Source: an uncultured Nitrososphaeraceae archaeon
GTDB lineage: Archaea > Thermoproteota > Nitrososphaeria > Nitrososphaerales > Nitrososphaeraceae
NCBI GenBank assembly: GCA_963837175.1
Contig: CAWIMJ010000047.1
Span: 1 to 64,000 of the forward strand
Length of the DNA: 64,000 nt
Reading direction: 5' to 3'
Each line of letters starts with the position of its first letter. Position 1 is the first letter of the stretch. Shown here one piece after another: positions 13,947 to 30,698 of the stretch. The notes under the pieces were generated by a model that saw nothing but the letters and a program-made list of their open reading frames with translations, made no database searches and was not told the origin of the DNA. Made by a program: the position numbers and the translations under genes.

Positions 13947-14972
13947 TCAATATAGATTAGTTTTAACTAAATTCGTGAACTCTTTTGTAGTGAGTTCTCC
14001 TCCAATGTCTTTTGTTTTTTTATTTTCTTTCAGCAAGCAGTATATAGCGTGTTCGATTCGCTTTCCTTGCGTAAGAGCATCTTCATCATTATTCTTGTAG
14101 GCCAACCACTCAAGCATCATTTTCGTTGATAGTAGAATTGACGAAGGATTTGCTATGTTCTTTCCTGCAATATCAAATGCTGCGCCATGAACGGGTTCAA
14201 ATAATGCGAAGTCATCACCTATATTGGCGGCCGGTCCCATTCCTAGACTACCTGCTATTTGTGATGCTTCATCCGATAGTATGTCCCCAAAAAGATTAGT
14301 AGTTAAAATAACATCGAATTCTTCAGGATTTCGAATTAAATTCATTGCACAAGCATCCACATATAGTTCACTATATTCTATGCTTGGATATTTTTCTGCA
14401 ACTGATTTACATGTCCTTGCAAATAACCCGTCGCCTTTTCGTAGAACATTTGCTTTATGAACTGCTACGACTTTACGTTTTTTGTTTCTGAGAATGGACA
14501 ACTTAAAAGCATGTTCAGCGATTCTCCTAGATGCCCTTTCTGAAGTTAACCTTAGTGCAATAACAGTACTATCATCGGCATAAAACTCCCATCCCAGGTA
14601 TAGGTCTTCAGTATTCTCTCGTACAATCACCAAATCTATATTATTAGAATAAGTCGGTGTGTTCGGAAAAGATTTCGCTGGCCTGACATTCGCATAAAGA
14701 TCAAATATCTGTCTCAAGACTACGATCACATCAGCGGCGCTTTCTCCTACTGGGCCTTTCAGACAGGCGTCAGATTCTTTTATTTTAGCCAAGGTTGAGT
14801 CTGGTAATGCTTTGCCAAACTTACTAATTGCATTATCTCCAGCTGAAACTTCAAATATAGTAAACTTAGTTTTAGAATTATCATTTATACTCTCCAAAAT
14901 TGTCTTTGCAGAAGACGTGAGATCAGGACCTATTCCGTCACCAATAATAAGCGCAATATTATACCTTGACAA
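13947..14972 (-). CDS. leuB: 3-isopropylmalate dehydrogenase (isocitrate/isopropylmalate DH family)
   Basis: GDGIGP, RENTEDLY, VHKANV, NLFGDILSD, FEPVHGAAFDIAGK; operon with leuA. Confidence 0.88.
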   Translation of the reverse strand: MSRYNIALIIGDGIGPDLTSSAKTILESINDNSKTKFTIFEVSAGDNAISKFGKALPDSTLAKIKESDACLKGPVGESAADVIVVLRQIFDLYANVRPAKSFPNTPTYSNNIDLVIVRENTEDLYLGWEFYADDSTVIALRLTSERASRRIAEHAFKLSILRNKKRKVVAVHKANVLRKGDGLFARTCKSVAEKYPSIEYSELYVDACAMNLIRNPEEFDVILTTNLFGDILSDEASQIAGSLGMGPAANIGDDFALFEPVHGAAFDIAGKNIANPSSILLSTKMMLEWLAYKNNDEDALTQGKRIEHAIYCLLKENKKTKDIGGELTTKEFTNLVKTNLY

Positions 14973-15005
14973 ATAGTCTTTATCCTTTAAGATTTTGTAA
15001 TAAAC

Positions 15006-16520
15006 CTAATTCTTGGTATAAAGAACCTTTCTTAGCATTGTTTTATTTATTGCATCCATCATAGCTTGAACTGAGGCAATTACTACATCTTCACCTGACT
15101 TTCTTGCAGAAACGATATTGCCATTTTTATCTTCTACTTTGATAACAACCTCTGCCAATGCGTCTGAACCGCCGGTAATAGAATCTAATTTGTATTCACG
15201 AATTTTAATATTAGCCAGTTCCCCTGCGATTTTTTGAATTGCTTTTAGTGCAGCATCTACAGGTCCTACACCTATTTCAGAGGCAACAAAATCGTTACCA
15301 TCAGTATTCAATCTAACTACGGCTGTTGGGATGATATTCATTCCCGTTACAATGTGAAAATCGTAGAGCTTGAATTTTTCTTCAAACTTGCTATTATTCA
15401 TAATCTCTCCAGTGATAGACAAAAGCTCTGCAGTTGTTATAGACTTTCCTTTGTCTGCGAGTATTTTTTGTTTTTCAACAATAGAGTGAATTTGATCATC
15501 TGTCGGTCTAATACCGAATTCTTCTAACATTGCTCTAATTCCATGAGCACCGGCATGTTTTCCTGCTTGAAGCCATCTTTTTCTTCCTACAATCTCTGGA
15601 CTAATAGGTTCATAAGTAAGGGGATTGTTCAAGATACCGTGAGTGTGAATGCCAGACTCATGGCCAAAGGCATTTTCACCAATTATCGCTTTGTTCGGTT
15701 GAACTATTATTCCCATTTTATTAGATACAAACTTGGACGTCTCATAAAGCAATTCAGTTTTAATATTATGCCTTTTATTGAATAAGCACTGAAGTGCCAT
15801 AACCAATTCCTCTAACGACGCATTTCCCGCTCTTTCTCCAAGTCCATTAATTGTCACATGAGCACAAGTAGCACCAGCGTTAATTCCGGCAATTGAATTA
15901 GCGACTGCTAGCCCAAAGTCGTCATGACAATGCATGCTGATAGCCAAATTTGTCGCTGATTTAACCTCAGCGACAAGTTCAGTGATATATTGGGGAGTTG
16001 CATACCCAACAGTATCTGGTATATCTATTCTATCTGCACCTGCCATCTCCACTGCTTTAAAAATTTTCTTTAAGAATTCTTTATCAGATCTAGTCGCATC
16101 CTCTGCAGAAAATTCTACTTTCATGCCATGTTTTTTTGCGTATTCTACTGCCGAGACAGCTTTTTCTAGAACTTGATCACGCGTCATCTTTAGCTTGTAT
16201 TGCATATGAATATCAGAAGTAGCAATAAAGGTGTGGACATATGCAAGATTACATTTTATAGCAGCATCTATGTCAGTTTGTATAGTCCGAGCTAGACCAC
16301 ATATTTCTGCTTTTAGTCCTTGCTTTGCAATGTTTGTTATTGCTTCCATTTCTCCATGAGAAACAATCGGAAAACCTGCCTCAATTATATCGACACCTAA
16401 CTCGTCAAGTTGAGAAGCAATCTCAATTTTTTGTTTTGGAGTAATAGAAACACCCGGCGTCTGTTCACCATCTCTTAACGTAGTATCAAAAATCTTTATG
16501 ATTTCTTTTGAATTGGACAT
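15006..16520 (-). CDS. leuA: 2-isopropylmalate synthase (LeuA/CimA family)
   Basis: DTTLRDGEQ, HCHDDFG, GERAGN, HESGIH, C-terminal regulatory domain GVGPVDA. Confidence 0.88.
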   Translation of the reverse strand: MSNSKEIIKIFDTTLRDGEQTPGVSITPKQKIEIASQLDELGVDIIEAGFPIVSHGEMEAITNIAKQGLKAEICGLARTIQTDIDAAIKCNLAYVHTFIATSDIHMQYKLKMTRDQVLEKAVSAVEYAKKHGMKVEFSAEDATRSDKEFLKKIFKAVEMAGADRIDIPDTVGYATPQYITELVAEVKSATNLAISMHCHDDFGLAVANSIAGINAGATCAHVTINGLGERAGNASLEELVMALQCLFNKRHNIKTELLYETSKFVSNKMGIIVQPNKAIIGENAFGHESGIHTHGILNNPLTYEPISPEIVGRKRWLQAGKHAGAHGIRAMLEEFGIRPTDDQIHSIVEKQKILADKGKSITTAELLSITGEIMNNSKFEEKFKLYDFHIVTGMNIIPTAVVRLNTDGNDFVASEIGVGPVDAALKAIQKIAGELANIKIREYKLDSITGGSDALAEVVIKVEDKNGNIVSARKSGEDVVIASVQAMMDAINKTMLRKVLYTKN

Positions 16521-17059
16521 TAAGAGTGGGTCCCCCTTGGAAGAGCCGAAACACCTGTTCTTGCTAATTGGATTATTCCGTAATGGCTAACAAGATTCTT
16601 AAATGCATCTATTTTGTCAGGCGTACCAGTAACTTCTACAATAATAGTCTCCTTACTTATATCGAGTATATTCGCCCTAAAAATTGATGCGAAATTTGTT
16701 ATTTCCATTCTACTAGTCGGATCTACTGCCCTCAATTTAATTAGGGCAAGTTCACGATAAACAGTTCTTTCTGTGTCAAGAACTTTCACATCTACTACGT
16801 CAATTAGTTTTCTTAGCTGTTTTACTAATTGATCTAATGTCTTTTCATCACTTTCTGTTGTAATAGTCATTCTTGAAAGATCGGCATTTTCAGTTGATCC
16901 AACTGTGATGCTTTCTATGTTAAAGTTCCTTGCCCTAAAGAGATTAGTTATCCTAAACAAAACGCCAGGCTTATCCTCTACTACGGCAGATACTATATAC
17001 CAAGTTTTGCCATCCACAATTGGCATATTCAAATATGAAGAAGCAGACGTAATCGTCAT
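16520..17059 (-). CDS. ilvH: Acetolactate synthase small (regulatory) subunit
   Basis: ACT domain VEDKPGVL..FRARNFNIESITVG, LARTG. Confidence 0.93.
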   Translation of the reverse strand: MTITSASSYLNMPIVDGKTWYIVSAVVEDKPGVLFRITNLFRARNFNIESITVGSTENADLSRMTITTESDEKTLDQLVKQLRKLIDVVDVKVLDTERTVYRELALIKLRAVDPTSRMEITNFASIFRANILDISKETIIVEVTGTPDKIDAFKNLVSHYGIIQLARTGVSALPRGTHS

Positions 17060-17067
17060 AATTTAAC

Positions 17068-18756
17068 TCATGATCCTGTAATCATGTCTTTAAGGCCAGT
17101 TCCTGGTGCAACAAACGGATAGACATCTTCTTCTGGATCTATGGGAATATCTATGACAGTAGCAACATCCGTCTTTATAGCTGATCTTATTGCTTTTTCT
17201 AAATCTTGCAATGACTGAACTTTAATTCCCTGCGCACCATATGCTTCGGCTATCTTGGCATAATCAGGACAGCAACGCTGGTGCACACCCATATATCTTC
17301 TATTATAAAATGTCCGTTGCCATTGAGCTACCATTCCTAACATATAATTATTCATTAAAAAAACAATTACAGGTAGGTTATCAAGAACTGAAACTGCAAG
17401 AGAATTCTCAGTCATATTAAACGAACCATCGCCAGCGATGTCAACTACTGGCACTTCTGGCATAGCCGCTTTAGCCCCTATAGAGGCAGGGAATCCAAAA
17501 CCCATTGTTCCTAATCCTGTGGAACTAAAAAAAGTACCAGGAGAAATAACATCAAAATGCAATGATGCCCACATTTGACATTGTCCTACTTCCGTAGTTG
17601 CAATCGCCTTTGAAGGTAAGATTTCCCTAAGTTTTTTTAATGCTTTTCTAGCTGTTAGGTCTCTCGGAAAATCCTTAATGCTTTCAGCATAATAATTGAT
17701 CAATTCAACTCTTCTCTTCAACCAAGGATAGTCTGCATTTTTTTTTACTATTTTCGTAGAGATCATCTTTACAAGCGTTCTTAGAGAAGATTTGACATCA
17801 CCTACTACTGCTACATCAACAGATTTATTTTTACCAATTTCTGCTGGATCAACGTCCATATGAATGATGCTCATTCCCTTTCCGAATTCATCAAATCTAC
17901 CAACAGATCTATCAGAAAATCTGGCTCCTACAGCTAATATACAATCTGCTTCAAGGATGATCTTATTTGCTTCTGGATGCCCATGCATTCCTATAGGACC
18001 CATCGCGAGAGGATGGTTTTCTGGAAAAGCTCCTTTACCCTTAAATGTCGTCACTACCGGACTCATTAACAATTCTGCCGCGGCCTGTAATTCGGAAAAC
18101 GCACCTGAGAGAATCACTCCGCCGCCAGCCATTATTATTGGTCTCTCTGCCTTTAGTAATAGCTCCACAGCCTTTCCTATCTGGGTTAGATCTGCATCAA
18201 TAATGGGGTTGTACCCACGTACCTTGATAAGATCAGGAAATTTCATATCTGCCGAAGATTGTTGTACATCTTTTGGGATATCTATAAGAACAGGACCTGG
18301 TCTTCCGCTCTCGGTTATATAGAATGCCTTTTTCACTATTTCCGGAATTTCTTCAGGAGCCCTTGGCTGAAACGCATATTTAGTACAAGGATTTGCGACA
18401 CCTATTATGTCAGTTTCTTGGAATGCATCCTTTCCTATCATGGCTAATGGCACCTGACCTGTTACTGCAACCATAGGTGATGAATCAGCGTAGGCTGTTG
18501 CTATTCCTGTAATTAAGTTAGTAGCGCCTGGACCTGAAGTGGCAAAGCAGACACCAGCTTTTCTTTTAATCCTTGCATAGCCATCAGCCATATGAGCGGC
18601 AGATTGTTCGTGTCGTACAAGTATATGCCTGAAATTTGCCTCCACTAAAGCATCGTATATAGGTAAGTTAGCTCCTCCGGGAAGTCCAAACACTACGTCG
18701 ACGTCCTCTTTTTCTAGAGCATAGATGAGTGCTTTTGCACCAGTCATTTCCACCAT
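17068..18756 (-). CDS. ilvB: Acetolactate synthase large subunit
   Basis: FGLPGGA, RHEQ, TSGPGATN, GDGSFNM, LGMVAQWQ; GGTGA SD 10 nt before ATG. Confidence 0.95.
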   Translation of the reverse strand: MVEMTGAKALIYALEKEDVDVVFGLPGGANLPIYDALVEANFRHILVRHEQSAAHMADGYARIKRKAGVCFATSGPGATNLITGIATAYADSSPMVAVTGQVPLAMIGKDAFQETDIIGVANPCTKYAFQPRAPEEIPEIVKKAFYITESGRPGPVLIDIPKDVQQSSADMKFPDLIKVRGYNPIIDADLTQIGKAVELLLKAERPIIMAGGGVILSGAFSELQAAAELLMSPVVTTFKGKGAFPENHPLAMGPIGMHGHPEANKIILEADCILAVGARFSDRSVGRFDEFGKGMSIIHMDVDPAEIGKNKSVDVAVVGDVKSSLRTLVKMISTKIVKKNADYPWLKRRVELINYYAESIKDFPRDLTARKALKKLREILPSKAIATTEVGQCQMWASLHFDVISPGTFFSSTGLGTMGFGFPASIGAKAAMPEVPVVDIAGDGSFNMTENSLAVSVLDNLPVIVFLMNNYMLGMVAQWQRTFYNRRYMGVHQRCCPDYAKIAEAYGAQGIKVQSLQDLEKAIRSAIKTDVATVIDIPIDPEEDVYPFVAPGTGLKDMITGS

Positions 18757-18821
18757 ATTATGCTATTCACCAATATTGTTTTTCTAAATAAACGCCCTGC
18801 TAAAACAGGAGAGTGCAGAGC

Positions 18822-18926
18822 TTAGTTCAGAGATCTTAACTTGGGCAACAACAGGCTAACGGACACATCTTTAACCTGGAACTGCAAGCAAGGTAATGTA
18901 AACCCTCCGCCAGTCTTAGGAGACAT
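18822..18926 (-). CDS. Putative ilv/leu operon leader peptide, 34 aa: MSPKTGGGFTLPCLQFQVKDVSVSLLLPKLRSLN
   Basis: ATG lies 24 nt after TTTATTAA (leaderless spacing as at fbp); 7 Leu including LLL, 3 Val; followed by a GC-rich hairpin and U-rich tract; below the ORF-track cut-off. Confidence 0.55.
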   Translation of the reverse strand: MSPKTGGGFTLPCLQFQVKDVSVSLLLPKLRSLN

Positions 18927-18950
18927 TCTTCATACAATGCAATGATATTA

Positions 18951-18958
18951 TTAATAAA
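18951..18958 (-). promoter_or_regulatory. TATA box for the leader-ilvB-ilvH-leuA-leuB transcript
   Basis: TTTATTAA on minus strand preceded by A-rich BRE-like CAAAATC. Confidence 0.55.
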
Positions 18959-19276
18959 GATTTTGCCAGTTAACGCTGATAATTAACAGTAACTGCCATA
19001 AAATTAACGCCTGTATAATAGCATAGCGAAAGACTCGGCATCACGCTCGATCTATAAATTTCTTGGTATCGATATCGCTTTGTATAAGTGCGATGCCATG
19101 ACAGGTCTATAGCTGACGATACGTTCATTTGATTAACACTCTATGGGATTGAATATAGAATAATTGCTTTAATCACAAGATAACATTTGAAAGATGAAAA
19201 ATCTAAAAGGTATCTTCTGCTTTGTAGATGTGTATAAGCTTAACGGCGCAATATAGATATACTTCTGATCGCTTAA

Positions 19277-20125
19277 CTAGCCAACAGATTTAATTTCTTT
19301 TTGGTGTTCTTTAATCTGTGTTGCTTTTTCCTTAAGATAAACTTCAGAAGCTTCTCTTAAATCCAGATTGTTGTGCACAATTGACCTCACAGATTTTATC
19401 ATTGCGACAGCATAACTTGATTGCCAAATGTTTCTACCCATATCAACCCCCGCGGCTCCGTGTTCTATGGCATCATAGGTTAACTTTAAAGCGTCGATTT
19501 CATTTGGTAGTTTCTTGCCTCCTGCTATGATTAGCGGAACCGGGCAGCCTTCTACAACACTTTCAAAATTATCACAATAGTATGTTTTTACGATATGTGC
19601 TCCCTGTTCAGCAGCAACTCTACATGCCAAAGCAAGATACCTAGCATCTCTGATCATATCCTTTCCTACTGCAGTAACGGCCAGCACAGGAATACCGTAT
19701 TTTTCACCTTCATCTACTAATCGGGACAAGCTTGCAAGAGTTTGATGCTCATATTTACTTCCAACGAAGATTGAAATAGCCAGACAAGAGGCATTAAGTT
19801 TGATAGCTTCTTCTATAGAGGTTGTTATAGTCTCATTGGAAAGATCTTCTCCAACAATACTTGTTCCCCCAGAGACTCGGAGAACTATTGGAACATCTGT
19901 ACTTGGGTTAATTGATGTTCTTAAAATTCCTCTTGTGACCATTAATGAGTCAGCATATGGTAATAAGGGTTTGATGGTTCTATTGGGAATTTCCAACCCT
20001 TCTGTGGGACCCAAAAAATAGCCATGATCAACTGCAAGCATCACACAGCGACCGTCTTGTTGACGAATGATCTTTGACATTCTATTTTTCATTCCCCAAT
20101 CCATGCTACTAATCCCTTTTGACAT
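19277..20125 (-). CDS. lsrF: LsrF-like class I (DhnA family) aldolase/thiolase
   Basis: MDWGMKNRMS, LAVDHGYFLGP, VKTYY Schiff-base Lys, AGGKK, GVDMGRNIWQ. Confidence 0.8.
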   Translation of the reverse strand: MSKGISSMDWGMKNRMSKIIRQQDGRCVMLAVDHGYFLGPTEGLEIPNRTIKPLLPYADSLMVTRGILRTSINPSTDVPIVLRVSGGTSIVGEDLSNETITTSIEEAIKLNASCLAISIFVGSKYEHQTLASLSRLVDEGEKYGIPVLAVTAVGKDMIRDARYLALACRVAAEQGAHIVKTYYCDNFESVVEGCPVPLIIAGGKKLPNEIDALKLTYDAIEHGAAGVDMGRNIWQSSYAVAMIKSVRSIVHNNLDLREASEVYLKEKATQIKEHQKEIKSVG

Positions 20126-29252: not shown

Positions 29253-30698
29253 TTATATCTCTGACTCTGCTGTTTTGTTAAGTGCAGACATTATAGCATT
29301 TAGCTTATATTCTGTCTCGTCCCACTCCTTTTCCGGGATCGAATCGATAACAATACCAGCTCCTGACTGAACATAGGCTCTTTTGTTATTTATGAAAAGA
29401 GATCTTATCGTGATTGCAAAATCGCAGGAGCCGTTAAATGAAAAGTAACCTAAAGCCCCTGCATATGGTCCACGAACAGATGGTTCTAATTCGTCAATAA
29501 TTTCCATCGCACGTACTTTTGGAGCGCCTGATACTGTTCCAGCCGGGAATATCGCCCTGAATGCATCAAATGAATCATTACCTTTTTGCAGGCTACCAAT
29601 TACATGGGATACTATATGCTGCACATGGCTAAATCTTTTCACGGCCATGAGATCACGAACTGTGACCGTACCATATCTAGATACCCTTCCTATGTCATTC
29701 CGAGCCAAATCTACTAACATTGTATGTTCTGCGATTTCTTTCTCATCATTAAGTAAATTTATACTTGATTCTTTATTCTTATTCTCGTCATTTACTATTG
29801 GCCGCGTTCCTGCAATTGGAAACGTTTCTACTAAATCTCTTGTGATCCGTAAAAGCATCTCTGGACTCGAACCTATGATACATTTGTCAGACATCTTTAA
29901 CATATACATATAAGGAGAGGGGTTAATCTCACGCAGACTCCGATAAACTGCTATTAAGTCACCTTTGATACTGAATTCCATCCTCCTTGATAAAACTACT
30001 TGGAAGATGTCCCCATCATAAAGATGGGCTTTGCACTCATTGACCAAACTCTTGTATTTATTTTTAGTGATATTGTGCTTTGGAATAGAATATGAAAAAG
30101 AAGGCTTACGACTTTTTTTAGAGTAACTACCTAATTTGCTTTGAATCTCATCCAGTCGGCAACCTTTTGTTACATGGAAATAATATGCTTGATTTTCCGC
30201 ATGATTAAAAATTATACCATCAGTGTATATTCCAAATTCAAGCAAAGGGAATTTAATATTATTTTCCTTTCTACTATTTGGTATATGTTCCCAGAAACGT
30301 ATTGCATCATAACTAATGTAACCAACTGCTCCACCTATATATCTAAATTGGTAATTACTAATCTTTGGCATAATTTGGCGAAGTTGAGACAGTGGTTCTT
30401 TAGTATCTACTTTTTTTATTATTTTATTTCTTCTATTATAGACTTTAAATGACTTTGAATTGCAGTTTATGGTCAATTCTGGATCGAATCCAATAATTGA
30501 TATCTGTGATAGCTCTGTTGGACCAACGAGAGATTCTAATATGAATGCTTTATCAAATAAATCATAGAACTTTTGGAATATTTCGAATTGATTGTCAGCC
30601 GTATTTAATTTGTGTAATTGGAACTGAAGTTTATCATTGTCGAAGGCTGATAAGCCAAAAGTATCCGCCTTCAAGTTTAGCTCCCATTGTGTTATCAT
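29253..30698 (-). CDS. trpE: Anthranilate synthase component I (chorismate-binding; PabB not excluded)
   Basis: ILES, GDIFQVVLS, NPSPY, GSSPE, PIAGTR, EHTMLVDLARND, FPAGTVSGAPKVRAM. Confidence 0.82.
   Translation of the reverse strand: MITQWELNLKADTFGLSAFDNDKLQFQLHKLNTADNQFEIFQKFYDLFDKAFILESLVGPTELSQISIIGFDPELTINCNSKSFKVYNRRNKIIKKVDTKEPLSQLRQIMPKISNYQFRYIGGAVGYISYDAIRFWEHIPNSRKENNIKFPLLEFGIYTDGIIFNHAENQAYYFHVTKGCRLDEIQSKLGSYSKKSRKPSFSYSIPKHNITKNKYKSLVNECKAHLYDGDIFQVVLSRRMEFSIKGDLIAVYRSLREINPSPYMYMLKMSDKCIIGSSPEMLLRITRDLVETFPIAGTRPIVNDENKNKESSINLLNDEKEIAEHTMLVDLARNDIGRVSRYGTVTVRDLMAVKRFSHVQHIVSHVIGSLQKGNDSFDAFRAIFPAGTVSGAPKVRAMEIIDELEPSVRGPYAGALGYFSFNGSCDFAITIRSLFINNKRAYVQSGAGIVIDSIPEKEWDETEYKLNAIMSALNKTAESEI

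Follow-up and report, generated by a model that had tools for sequence, protein, structure and literature searches.

A putative leaderless leader peptide for branched-chain amino acid sensing ahead of the ilvB-ilvH-leuA-leuB operon of a Nitrososphaeraceae archaeon

The layout and conservation of the region ahead of ilvB suggest that the ilvB-ilvH-leuA-leuB operon of a Nitrososphaeraceae archaeon is preceded by a leader peptide on a leaderless transcript, through which branched-chain amino acids (BCAA) are sensed. The window, which is the whole 64,000-nucleotide stretch of DNA analyzed here, carries a short upstream open reading frame (uORF) with a Leu-rich end, with a hairpin and a U-rich tract directly behind its stop codon. 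The favored reading, with a probability of about 0.6, is a leaderless, BCAA-sensing leader peptide whose output is most likely control of the hairpin and U tract by a ribosome at the end of the uORF. The more general description of the element as a BCAA-sensing cis-regulatory leader peptide is likely to be right. The layout is kept across a whole archaeal class, which points to what may be a bacterial-style amino acid sensor in Archaea. A stronger claim is that Archaea have here their first amino-acid-sensing attenuator mediated by the ribosome, ancient in the class of the ammonia oxidizers. Its geometry would differ from the bacterial one, with the hungry codons at the far end of a leaderless leader peptide and with a stalled ribosome rather than an antiterminator helix blocking the stop-adjacent hairpin and hence premature termination, possibly by aCPSF1/FttA. 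That claim is possible, at somewhat less than even odds.

Anatomy and conservation of the leader

All of the leader features fall on the minus strand, in the last 200 nt of the 520-nt spacer ahead of ilvB. They are listed here in the direction of transcription, together with the neighboring genes.

Ends at 19277, minus strand: aldolase-family gene, followed by the 520-nt spacer and then ilvB
18951..18964, minus strand: promoter, with A-rich BRE-like bases and a TATA box, TTTATTAA (18958-18951)
18822..18926, minus strand: leaderless uORF encoding the putative leader peptide, 34 codons plus a TAA stop (18824-18822)
18846..18854, minus strand: Leu run CTG TTG TTG, codons 25-27 of the uORF
18794..18821, minus strand: hairpin beginning at the first base past the uORF stop, with arms GCTCTGC (18821-18815) and GCAGGGC (18800-18794)
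18786..18793, minus strand: U-rich tract GTTTATTT, directly 3' of the hairpin
18767..18771, minus strand: Shine-Dalgarno (SD) sequence GGTGA of ilvB, 10 nt ahead of the ATG at 18756 and kept in an alignment of 20 leaders
18756-17068, minus strand: ilvB (NCBIfam)
17059-16520, minus strand: acetolactate synthase small subunit, ilvH (NCBIfam)
16520-15006, minus strand: leuA (NCBIfam)
14972-13947, minus strand: leuB-type dehydrogenase (NCBIfam)
13947..18756, minus strand: the whole ilvB-ilvH-leuA-leuB operon, proposed to be under control of the leader

An earlier note, made from the DNA letters, had proposed an attenuation-like leader at this site. The ORF at 18926-18822 with its Leu run, the TATA box 24 nt ahead, the two hairpin arms, the U-rich tract, and the GGTGA motif are all where that note had placed them, and its gene order agrees with the NCBIfam assignments. 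The gap between TTTATTAA and the ATG of the uORF is exactly 24 nt. The predicted peptide has 34 residues, seven of them Leu and three Val. Additional Leu codons lie at positions 30 and 33, so that Leu occupies five of the last ten codons. The loop of the hairpin is pyrimidine-rich, and an inner alternative stem is possible at 18810-18795. The region 5' of ilvB had also been described as richer in GC than the neighboring spacer, and this is the case (0.42-0.44 over 18800-18949 vs 0.29-0.33 over 19100-19349).

Taken alone, the uORF and hairpin of the window are not beyond chance, and their support comes from conservation. Three ORFs of 33-34 codons overlap at the leader in different frames, so the ORF by itself is unremarkable. 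As 11 of 200 shuffled sequences fold equally well, the hairpin (-12.2 kcal/mol, z -1.71) is no more than marginal, and the entire leader has no unusual structure (z -0.31). An Rfam search, proposed in the earlier note, gave no relevant match to any of the 4227 models over 18000-20000 at E values up to 10.

Within the genus of the window, the spacer is 72-78% identical in five of the six other genomes. The uORF is in frame in four of the six, and there is also one form with an in-frame deletion of nine codons. One genome of the genus has ACG instead of ATG, and another has a 1-nt frameshift. The leader with the nine-codon deletion is that of locus L024 in bin G066. This bin is filed under genus g12, but its ilvB locus is of the window's genus type (94% identity) and it has a second ilvB, so it is probably mixed. 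The upstream 310 nt of the spacer (window 18960-19276) are likewise conserved at 72-78% within the genus and have no Rfam match. A 52-codon ORF at 18970-19128 (minus strand) does not keep its frame in relatives, as judged by eye.

A 45-nt block at 18965-18921, which runs from just before the TATA box into the first codons, recurs in three other genera at 83-87% identity, always upstream of ilvB. This block (window 18921-18965, minus strand) is conserved beyond the needs of a TATA box. One possibility is that a DNA-binding regulator uses the bases between the TATA box and the start as its operator.

The uORF with a BCAA tail is found in two thirds of the genera of the family. The sample consisted of 53 ilvB upstream regions from all 18 genera, with three unpublished genomes used only in the ilvB tally. 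Upstream regions were searched for a TATA-like octamer followed after 14-31 nt by an ATG (the distances found were 22-28 nt) and an ORF of at least 12 codons. By this rule 11 of the 18 genera have a uORF, 19-34 codons long and ending 33-69 nt ahead of ilvB. In a twelfth genus, g16, the BCAA tail is present in a frame shifted by one base, bringing the total to 12 of 18. Five genera of the family have no uORF, and the uORF of g12 is a different one that lacks a BCAA tail.

Outside the family the tail and hairpin persist while the rest of the leader does not. Sixteen other families of the order were searched, and 15 have an ilvB gene. Most of these 15 have a short ORF that ends 32-74 nt before ilvB, with a tail rich in Leu, Val, and Ile and a hairpin directly behind the stop. 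The predicted peptides range from 13 to 34 codons and, apart from the tail, cannot be aligned between families. A count that does not depend on the start codon was also used, in which at least seven of the ten codons before a stop at -130 to -25 must be Leu, Ile, or Val (LIV). Ten of the 15 other families of the order reach this threshold. With search zones slightly wider than the one used for the null, so do 17 of the 25 loci of family f13, six of the 12 loci from other orders of the class (one of them doubtful, with clear cases in f18, f21, and f22), and one of the 29 loci from the rest of the phylum, which is the background level. Loci L122 and L129-L132 (no tblastn match with a 60-residue query) and L140 (too little upstream sequence) were left out of the counts. 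The earlier note had made its proposal depend on conservation of the uORF and its Leu codons in relatives, and the comparison of upstream regions finds the uORF and its BCAA codons kept well outside the genus.

In the rest of the phylum only family f43, which belongs to another class, has the layout. Its loci L155 and L160 have an ORF with an Ile/Val-rich end upstream of ilvB and a strong hairpin right behind the stop. This suggests that the layout may exist, or may have arisen again, outside the class. In f13 (L091-L115), many genomes share an AT-rich motif between the hairpin and ilvB, along with a mini-ORF of about seven codons whose end reaches or overlaps the start of ilvB. Possible explanations are a second uORF, an extension of the N terminus, or a second promoter.

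Other biosynthetic genes were searched for similar leaders. No cognate leader was found upstream of ilvC, ilvD, trpE, hisG, or three aconitase-family genes in this genome. The only small ORF ahead of trpE (window 29304-30065, minus strand) has one Trp codon and does not make a tryptophan leader. A genome-wide screen for small ORFs at TATA-to-ATG spacing gave 225 candidates, none obviously cognate, with the downstream genes unannotated. G155 is the sole genome in which leuA and ilvB lie apart, and a leader is absent from both.

The stop-adjacent hairpin and the leader transcript

A hairpin directly behind the stop codon is far more frequent in the leaders than in controls. It was scored as a perfect stem of at least 5 bp starting between -9 and +8 from the end of the stop, and a T-rich tail as at least four T in the next nine bases. 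Among 52 leaders, a set chosen for a tail already seen and to that extent selected, 52% have such a hairpin. The share is 12% in shuffled sequences and 3% at 938 gene stops in this genome. Hairpin and T-rich tail occur together in 35% of the same leaders, vs 4% of shuffles and 1% of the gene stops. The stem sequences vary between families, and seven of 30 folds have z scores of -2.9 or below. In 20 leaders from eight genera of the family the hairpin helix is 90.6% paired, vs 30-55% in slid controls. Covarying stems had been suggested as a check in the earlier note. The helices have almost no covariation, but their columns hardly vary within the family, which makes covariation uninformative here, and the RNAalifold consensus of the 20 leaders is weak (-1.94 kcal/mol).

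Archaeal RNA polymerase is able to terminate at hairpin/U-type signals. In the whole genome G000, T5 runs occur within 60 nt of 19% of stops vs 6% inside genes, and a hairpin with U tract is found at 0.7% of ordinary gene ends vs 0.5% of shuffles. Since hairpin-plus-U is not a general gene-end signal in this genome, the terminator role of the hairpin is an assumption.

The most conserved property of the element is contiguity, with no gap from the BCAA run to the stop or from the stop to the 5' arm of the hairpin. It follows that the hairpin and a ribosome sitting on the final codons are mutually exclusive. The earlier note had remarked that the hairpin abuts the stop and that the logic may therefore differ from the bacterial model, and this turns out to be the feature kept best.

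Leader alignments, the consensus fold, and a slid-control test revealed no conserved, mutually exclusive antiterminator. The pairing of CCUGUU with AGCAGG that the earlier note had put forward does exist as complementarity in the window, but it is not conserved (62% paired vs 64% in slid controls). Codons 6-8 can form a long-range helix with the 5' arm that is 81% paired; it is confined to the family and has no covariation.

Translational attenuation of the kind seen in mycobacterial polycysteine sORFs and ermC is an unlikely account, though it survives better than the other alternatives. The BCAA tract or the hairpin would mask the ribosome binding site of ilvB, and a stalled ribosome would unmask it. 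The layout is that of the mycobacterial system (bioRxiv 10.1101/834739), with a leaderless first ORF and a sensing tract at its 3' end. In the minimum-free-energy fold of the window, the Leu codons and CCAA pair with the GGTGA region, and the duplex energy is -11.0, vs -7.4 +/- 2.2 in shuffles. Pairing of the BCAA tract with the SD is, however, not general. Over 26 lineages the mean z is +0.19, none of the 26 falls below -1.64, and the window comes nearest to that value at z -1.6. The predicted accessibility of the SD in 30 leaders also does not respond to the position of the ribosome (0.47 for the free leader, 0.46 when the ribosome sits early in the run, and 0.47 when it occupies the last codon). 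The earlier note had allowed for a switch in ilvB translation; if SD masking is taken as its means, it finds no support from either the duplexes or the accessibilities.

Occlusion of the hairpin by the ribosome is favored within the main reading because SD masking and the CCUGUU:AGCAGG helix were rejected and because the run, stop, and arm are contiguous. Transcription starts no more than one or two bases from the AUG of the uORF, about 24 nt past the TATA box, and a ribosome would load on the 5' end. It would then translate a uORF (34 codons here, 13-34 elsewhere) whose last eight or so positions are a run of Leu, Val, and Ile codons. The hairpin begins within a few bases of the stop, usually followed by the U-rich tract and then by the SD of ilvB. 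If tRNAs charged with Leu, Val, or Ile were scarce, the ribosome would dwell on the last codons and cover the 5' arm, and RNA polymerase would pass the U tract into ilvB. If they were plentiful, the ribosome would terminate and leave, the hairpin would form, and a share of transcripts would end at the U tract, either intrinsically or through the archaeal factor aCPSF1/FttA. This scheme requires that the polymerase wait at the U tract or that a factor-dependent termination step be slow. With no antiterminator, the hairpin would be free to form whenever the ribosome is held up near the beginning of the run, and the sign would then be wrong if the polymerase does not pause at the U tract. The occlusion-antitermination step in this form is tentative and stays on the doubtful side.

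The sign could be the opposite one if the leader works as a coupling sensor like pyrBI. The hairpin would then be prevented only if the ribosome keeps up with the polymerase, and read-through would report translational capacity rather than the need for BCAA. With the hairpin right at the stop and a search for an antiterminator negative, simple kinetics favor read-through when translation is fast. Such a sensor leaves unexplained the strict choice of Leu, Val, and Ile (0.94 at codon -2) ahead of exactly the BCAA operon, and it would reduce synthesis when amino acids are scarce. It is judged slightly less probable than translational attenuation.

RNA-seq data from a relative place the 5' end of the ilvB transcript at the uORF. 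Raw stranded reads were available for the complete genome G095 (genus g15), in which the leader at locus L072 has the same layout. In run X23 positions 1-119 have a depth of 0. The bin 120-136, which includes the uORF AUG at 121, has a depth of 45, and from there it climbs to 292. At the start of ilvB (249) the depth holds at 222-265 and does not rise anew. The reads begin 25 nt past the equivalent TATA box. From the onset of depth at the AUG and the lack of a new rise at ilvB, a single transcript starts at the uORF AUG of G095 and reads through into ilvB. A transcription start downstream of the uORF, the finding that the earlier note had named as counting against its proposal, was therefore not seen. 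The spacing agrees with that of the leaders in general: in the 52-leader set, selected for its tail as described above, an in-frame ATG lies 20-30 nt after a TATA-like octamer in 34 cases, with a mode of 24 nt, compared with a background of 9.4% of ATGs.

Molecule ends in X23 would fit a leader RNA of about 100 nt. There are 25 molecule ends at position 127 and 21 reads with adapter directly behind position 227, five bases past the U tract; a comparable peak of ends at 328 (17 reads) makes the peak at 227 not unique. The depth over the leader is lower than over the body of ilvB, with no pile-up of attenuated leader RNA, and read-through dominates in X23, the sole informative run. The stretch has 1741 reads in X23 vs 92 in X22 and 100 in X24, a difference of about 17-fold at similar sequencing depth. 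X22 and X24 have no leader reads and none before about position 392. The absence of leader reads from two of the three runs points to additional control of the ilvB operon at the promoter or by growth state.

All three runs have abrupt 5' ends at 392-447 of L072, which is 145-198 nt inside the G095 ilvB, with four to five times more depth downstream. These ends could be an internal start, a processing site, or the point at which 5' decay halts.

Induced mRNA stability would account for regulation while leaving termination unaffected. A ribosome parked near the 5' end, perhaps together with the hairpin, would shield the ilvB mRNA from 5'-to-3' decay during BCAA shortage, and ermC and RNase J provide a bacterial precedent for stability induced by a ribosome. 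The position of the uORF at the extreme 5' end is consistent with this, and the combination of lower depth over the leader with strong 5' ends inside ilvB suggests 5' trimming. The start of the hairpin at the stop codon and its U-rich tail would be left without an explanation, and this alternative is considered very unlikely.

Codon content of the upstream reading frame

The tail of the predicted peptide is enriched in BCAA across lineages. At least seven of the last ten codons are LIV in 14 of 33 lineage representatives vs 4.9% of 1173 genes of this genome, and at least eight of ten in nine of 33 vs 1.1%, although the lineages are related and are not independent trials. When the ORF was instead chosen by an a priori rule, which left seven of the 33 representatives without an ORF, partly because in-frame upstream ATGs make it too long, the mean LIV share of the last ten residues was 0.58, compared with 0.26 in 721 null small ORFs. 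Comparison of the sequences indicates that the BCAA tail persists although the rest of the leader has diverged.

Selection acts on BCAA codons, not on hydrophobicity or on the RNA sequence. In the 52 leaders, which were selected for a tail, the last ten residues are 67.3% Leu, Ile, and Val, 24.2% polar, and 8.5% other hydrophobic residues (Phe, Met, Ala, Trp, Tyr, and Cys combined). The LIV frequency in this set is 0.94 at codon -2, 0.79 at -3, and 0.15-0.37 beyond -11. All six Leu codons are in use.

Codon changes between related leaders also give the frame a coding signal. An excess of synonymous changes in frame, relative to both shifted frames, was found in g1, g17, g15, and g18. The ratios of synonymous to non-synonymous changed codons in frame are 16/15 (g1), 53/68 (g17), and 17/21 (g15), while in the two shifted frames they are 7/22 and 7/22 (g1), 24/103 and 31/90 (g17), and 10/31 and 0/37 (g15). 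The more diverged g2 and g3 have no such excess.

These counts bear on the possibility that the uORF is untranslated and that its BCAA-rich frame is incidental to a conserved promoter, an operator for a DNA-binding regulator, and a structured 5' UTR. The unusual conservation of the 45-nt promoter block agrees with it, as does the promoter control implied by the two RNA-seq runs of three without a leader transcript, and the frame is not inviolate, with one loss of the start codon and two frame breaks. An incidental frame, however, would not keep a BCAA tail across families that share no leader sequence, and it predicts neither the synonymous excess nor the use of all six Leu codons. This account is about as improbable as induced mRNA stability. 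The least probable alternative is a small hydrophobic peptide with its own function, for instance at the membrane or on an enzyme: within the family the N-terminal half is conserved too, but between families the peptides (13-34 residues) cannot be aligned, the hydrophobic stretch is only about eight residues long, other hydrophobic residues make up just 8.5% of the tail, and none of nine leader peptides was found in a collection of 15 billion predicted proteins, in which the leaders are thus unannotated.

For the leader as a whole, the attenuation-like proposal is supported in part, namely for a conserved leaderless uORF, a run of Leu, Val, and Ile codons, and, in a relative, a transcript that starts at the AUG, while the alternative helix and SD masking are not supported.

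Comparison with known systems

In bacteria, attenuation by leader peptides is a textbook mechanism, and it depends on the coupling of transcription to translation. No archaeal precedent was found in the literature searched, which comprised open PubMed Central papers and bioRxiv. Whether archaea use the coupling of transcription and translation for regulation becomes directly testable with this element. The candidate is conserved, easily recognized, and present in cultured ammonia oxidizers for which RNA-seq already exists. If the favored reading is true, the element would be the first cis-regulatory handle on amino acid metabolism in this globally important group, and it would offer a test case for the interplay of archaeal polymerase, termination factor, and ribosome on a 5' leader.

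The closest known relatives in gene content are the E. coli leaders ivbL-ilvBN, leuL-leuABCD, and ilvL-ilvGMEDA, which are leader-peptide transcription attenuators of BCAA operons. Like them, the archaeal element has a short ORF rich in end-product codons ahead of the same genes, followed by a hairpin and U tract before the first enzyme gene. Unlike them, it has a leaderless ORF, putative regulatory codons that extend up to the end of the ORF, a hairpin at the stop, and no antiterminator that could be found. It also has no Rfam match and resides in an archaeal host with a different polymerase and termination machinery. Judged as a member of the trpL/leuL/ivbL type, the element has the conserved short leader ORF, with predicted translation, and the enrichment of end-product codons; what it lacks is the antiterminator.

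Leaderless leader peptides are known from actinobacteria as well. Corynebacterial leader peptides are translated from leaderless transcripts. The ilvBNC operon of Corynebacterium is reported to have a leader uORF and a three-hairpin attenuator (PMC10272879, PMC11857589). The two systems share a uORF ahead of ilvB in a BCAA operon, and they differ in that three competing hairpins are described for Corynebacterium whereas one conserved hairpin was found here. In mycobacteria, polycysteine leaderless sORFs have a tract that pairs with the SD of the next gene and exerts translational control (bioRxiv 10.1101/834739). The resemblance lies in a leaderless first ORF of an operon, a sensing tract at its 3' end, and a stalled ribosome as the proposed signal, while the SD pairing of the mycobacterial sORFs is not general in the archaeal leaders examined. 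By the features that define the Cys-sORF/ermC type, the element has the leaderless first ORF with a 3' tract and shows no SD sequestration.

The tnaC leader of the E. coli tnaC-tnaAB operon is the system closest in mechanism to the favored reading. Free tryptophan is sensed there by way of the nascent peptide, and the operon induced is a catabolic one. When the ribosome is held at the end of the tnaC ORF, it covers the RNA behind the stop and prevents factor-dependent (Rho) termination. The archaeal element differs from tnaC in that hungry codons ahead of a biosynthetic operon are proposed to hold the ribosome. If aCPSF1/FttA takes the place of Rho, tnaC would be the nearest analogue of the favored mechanism.
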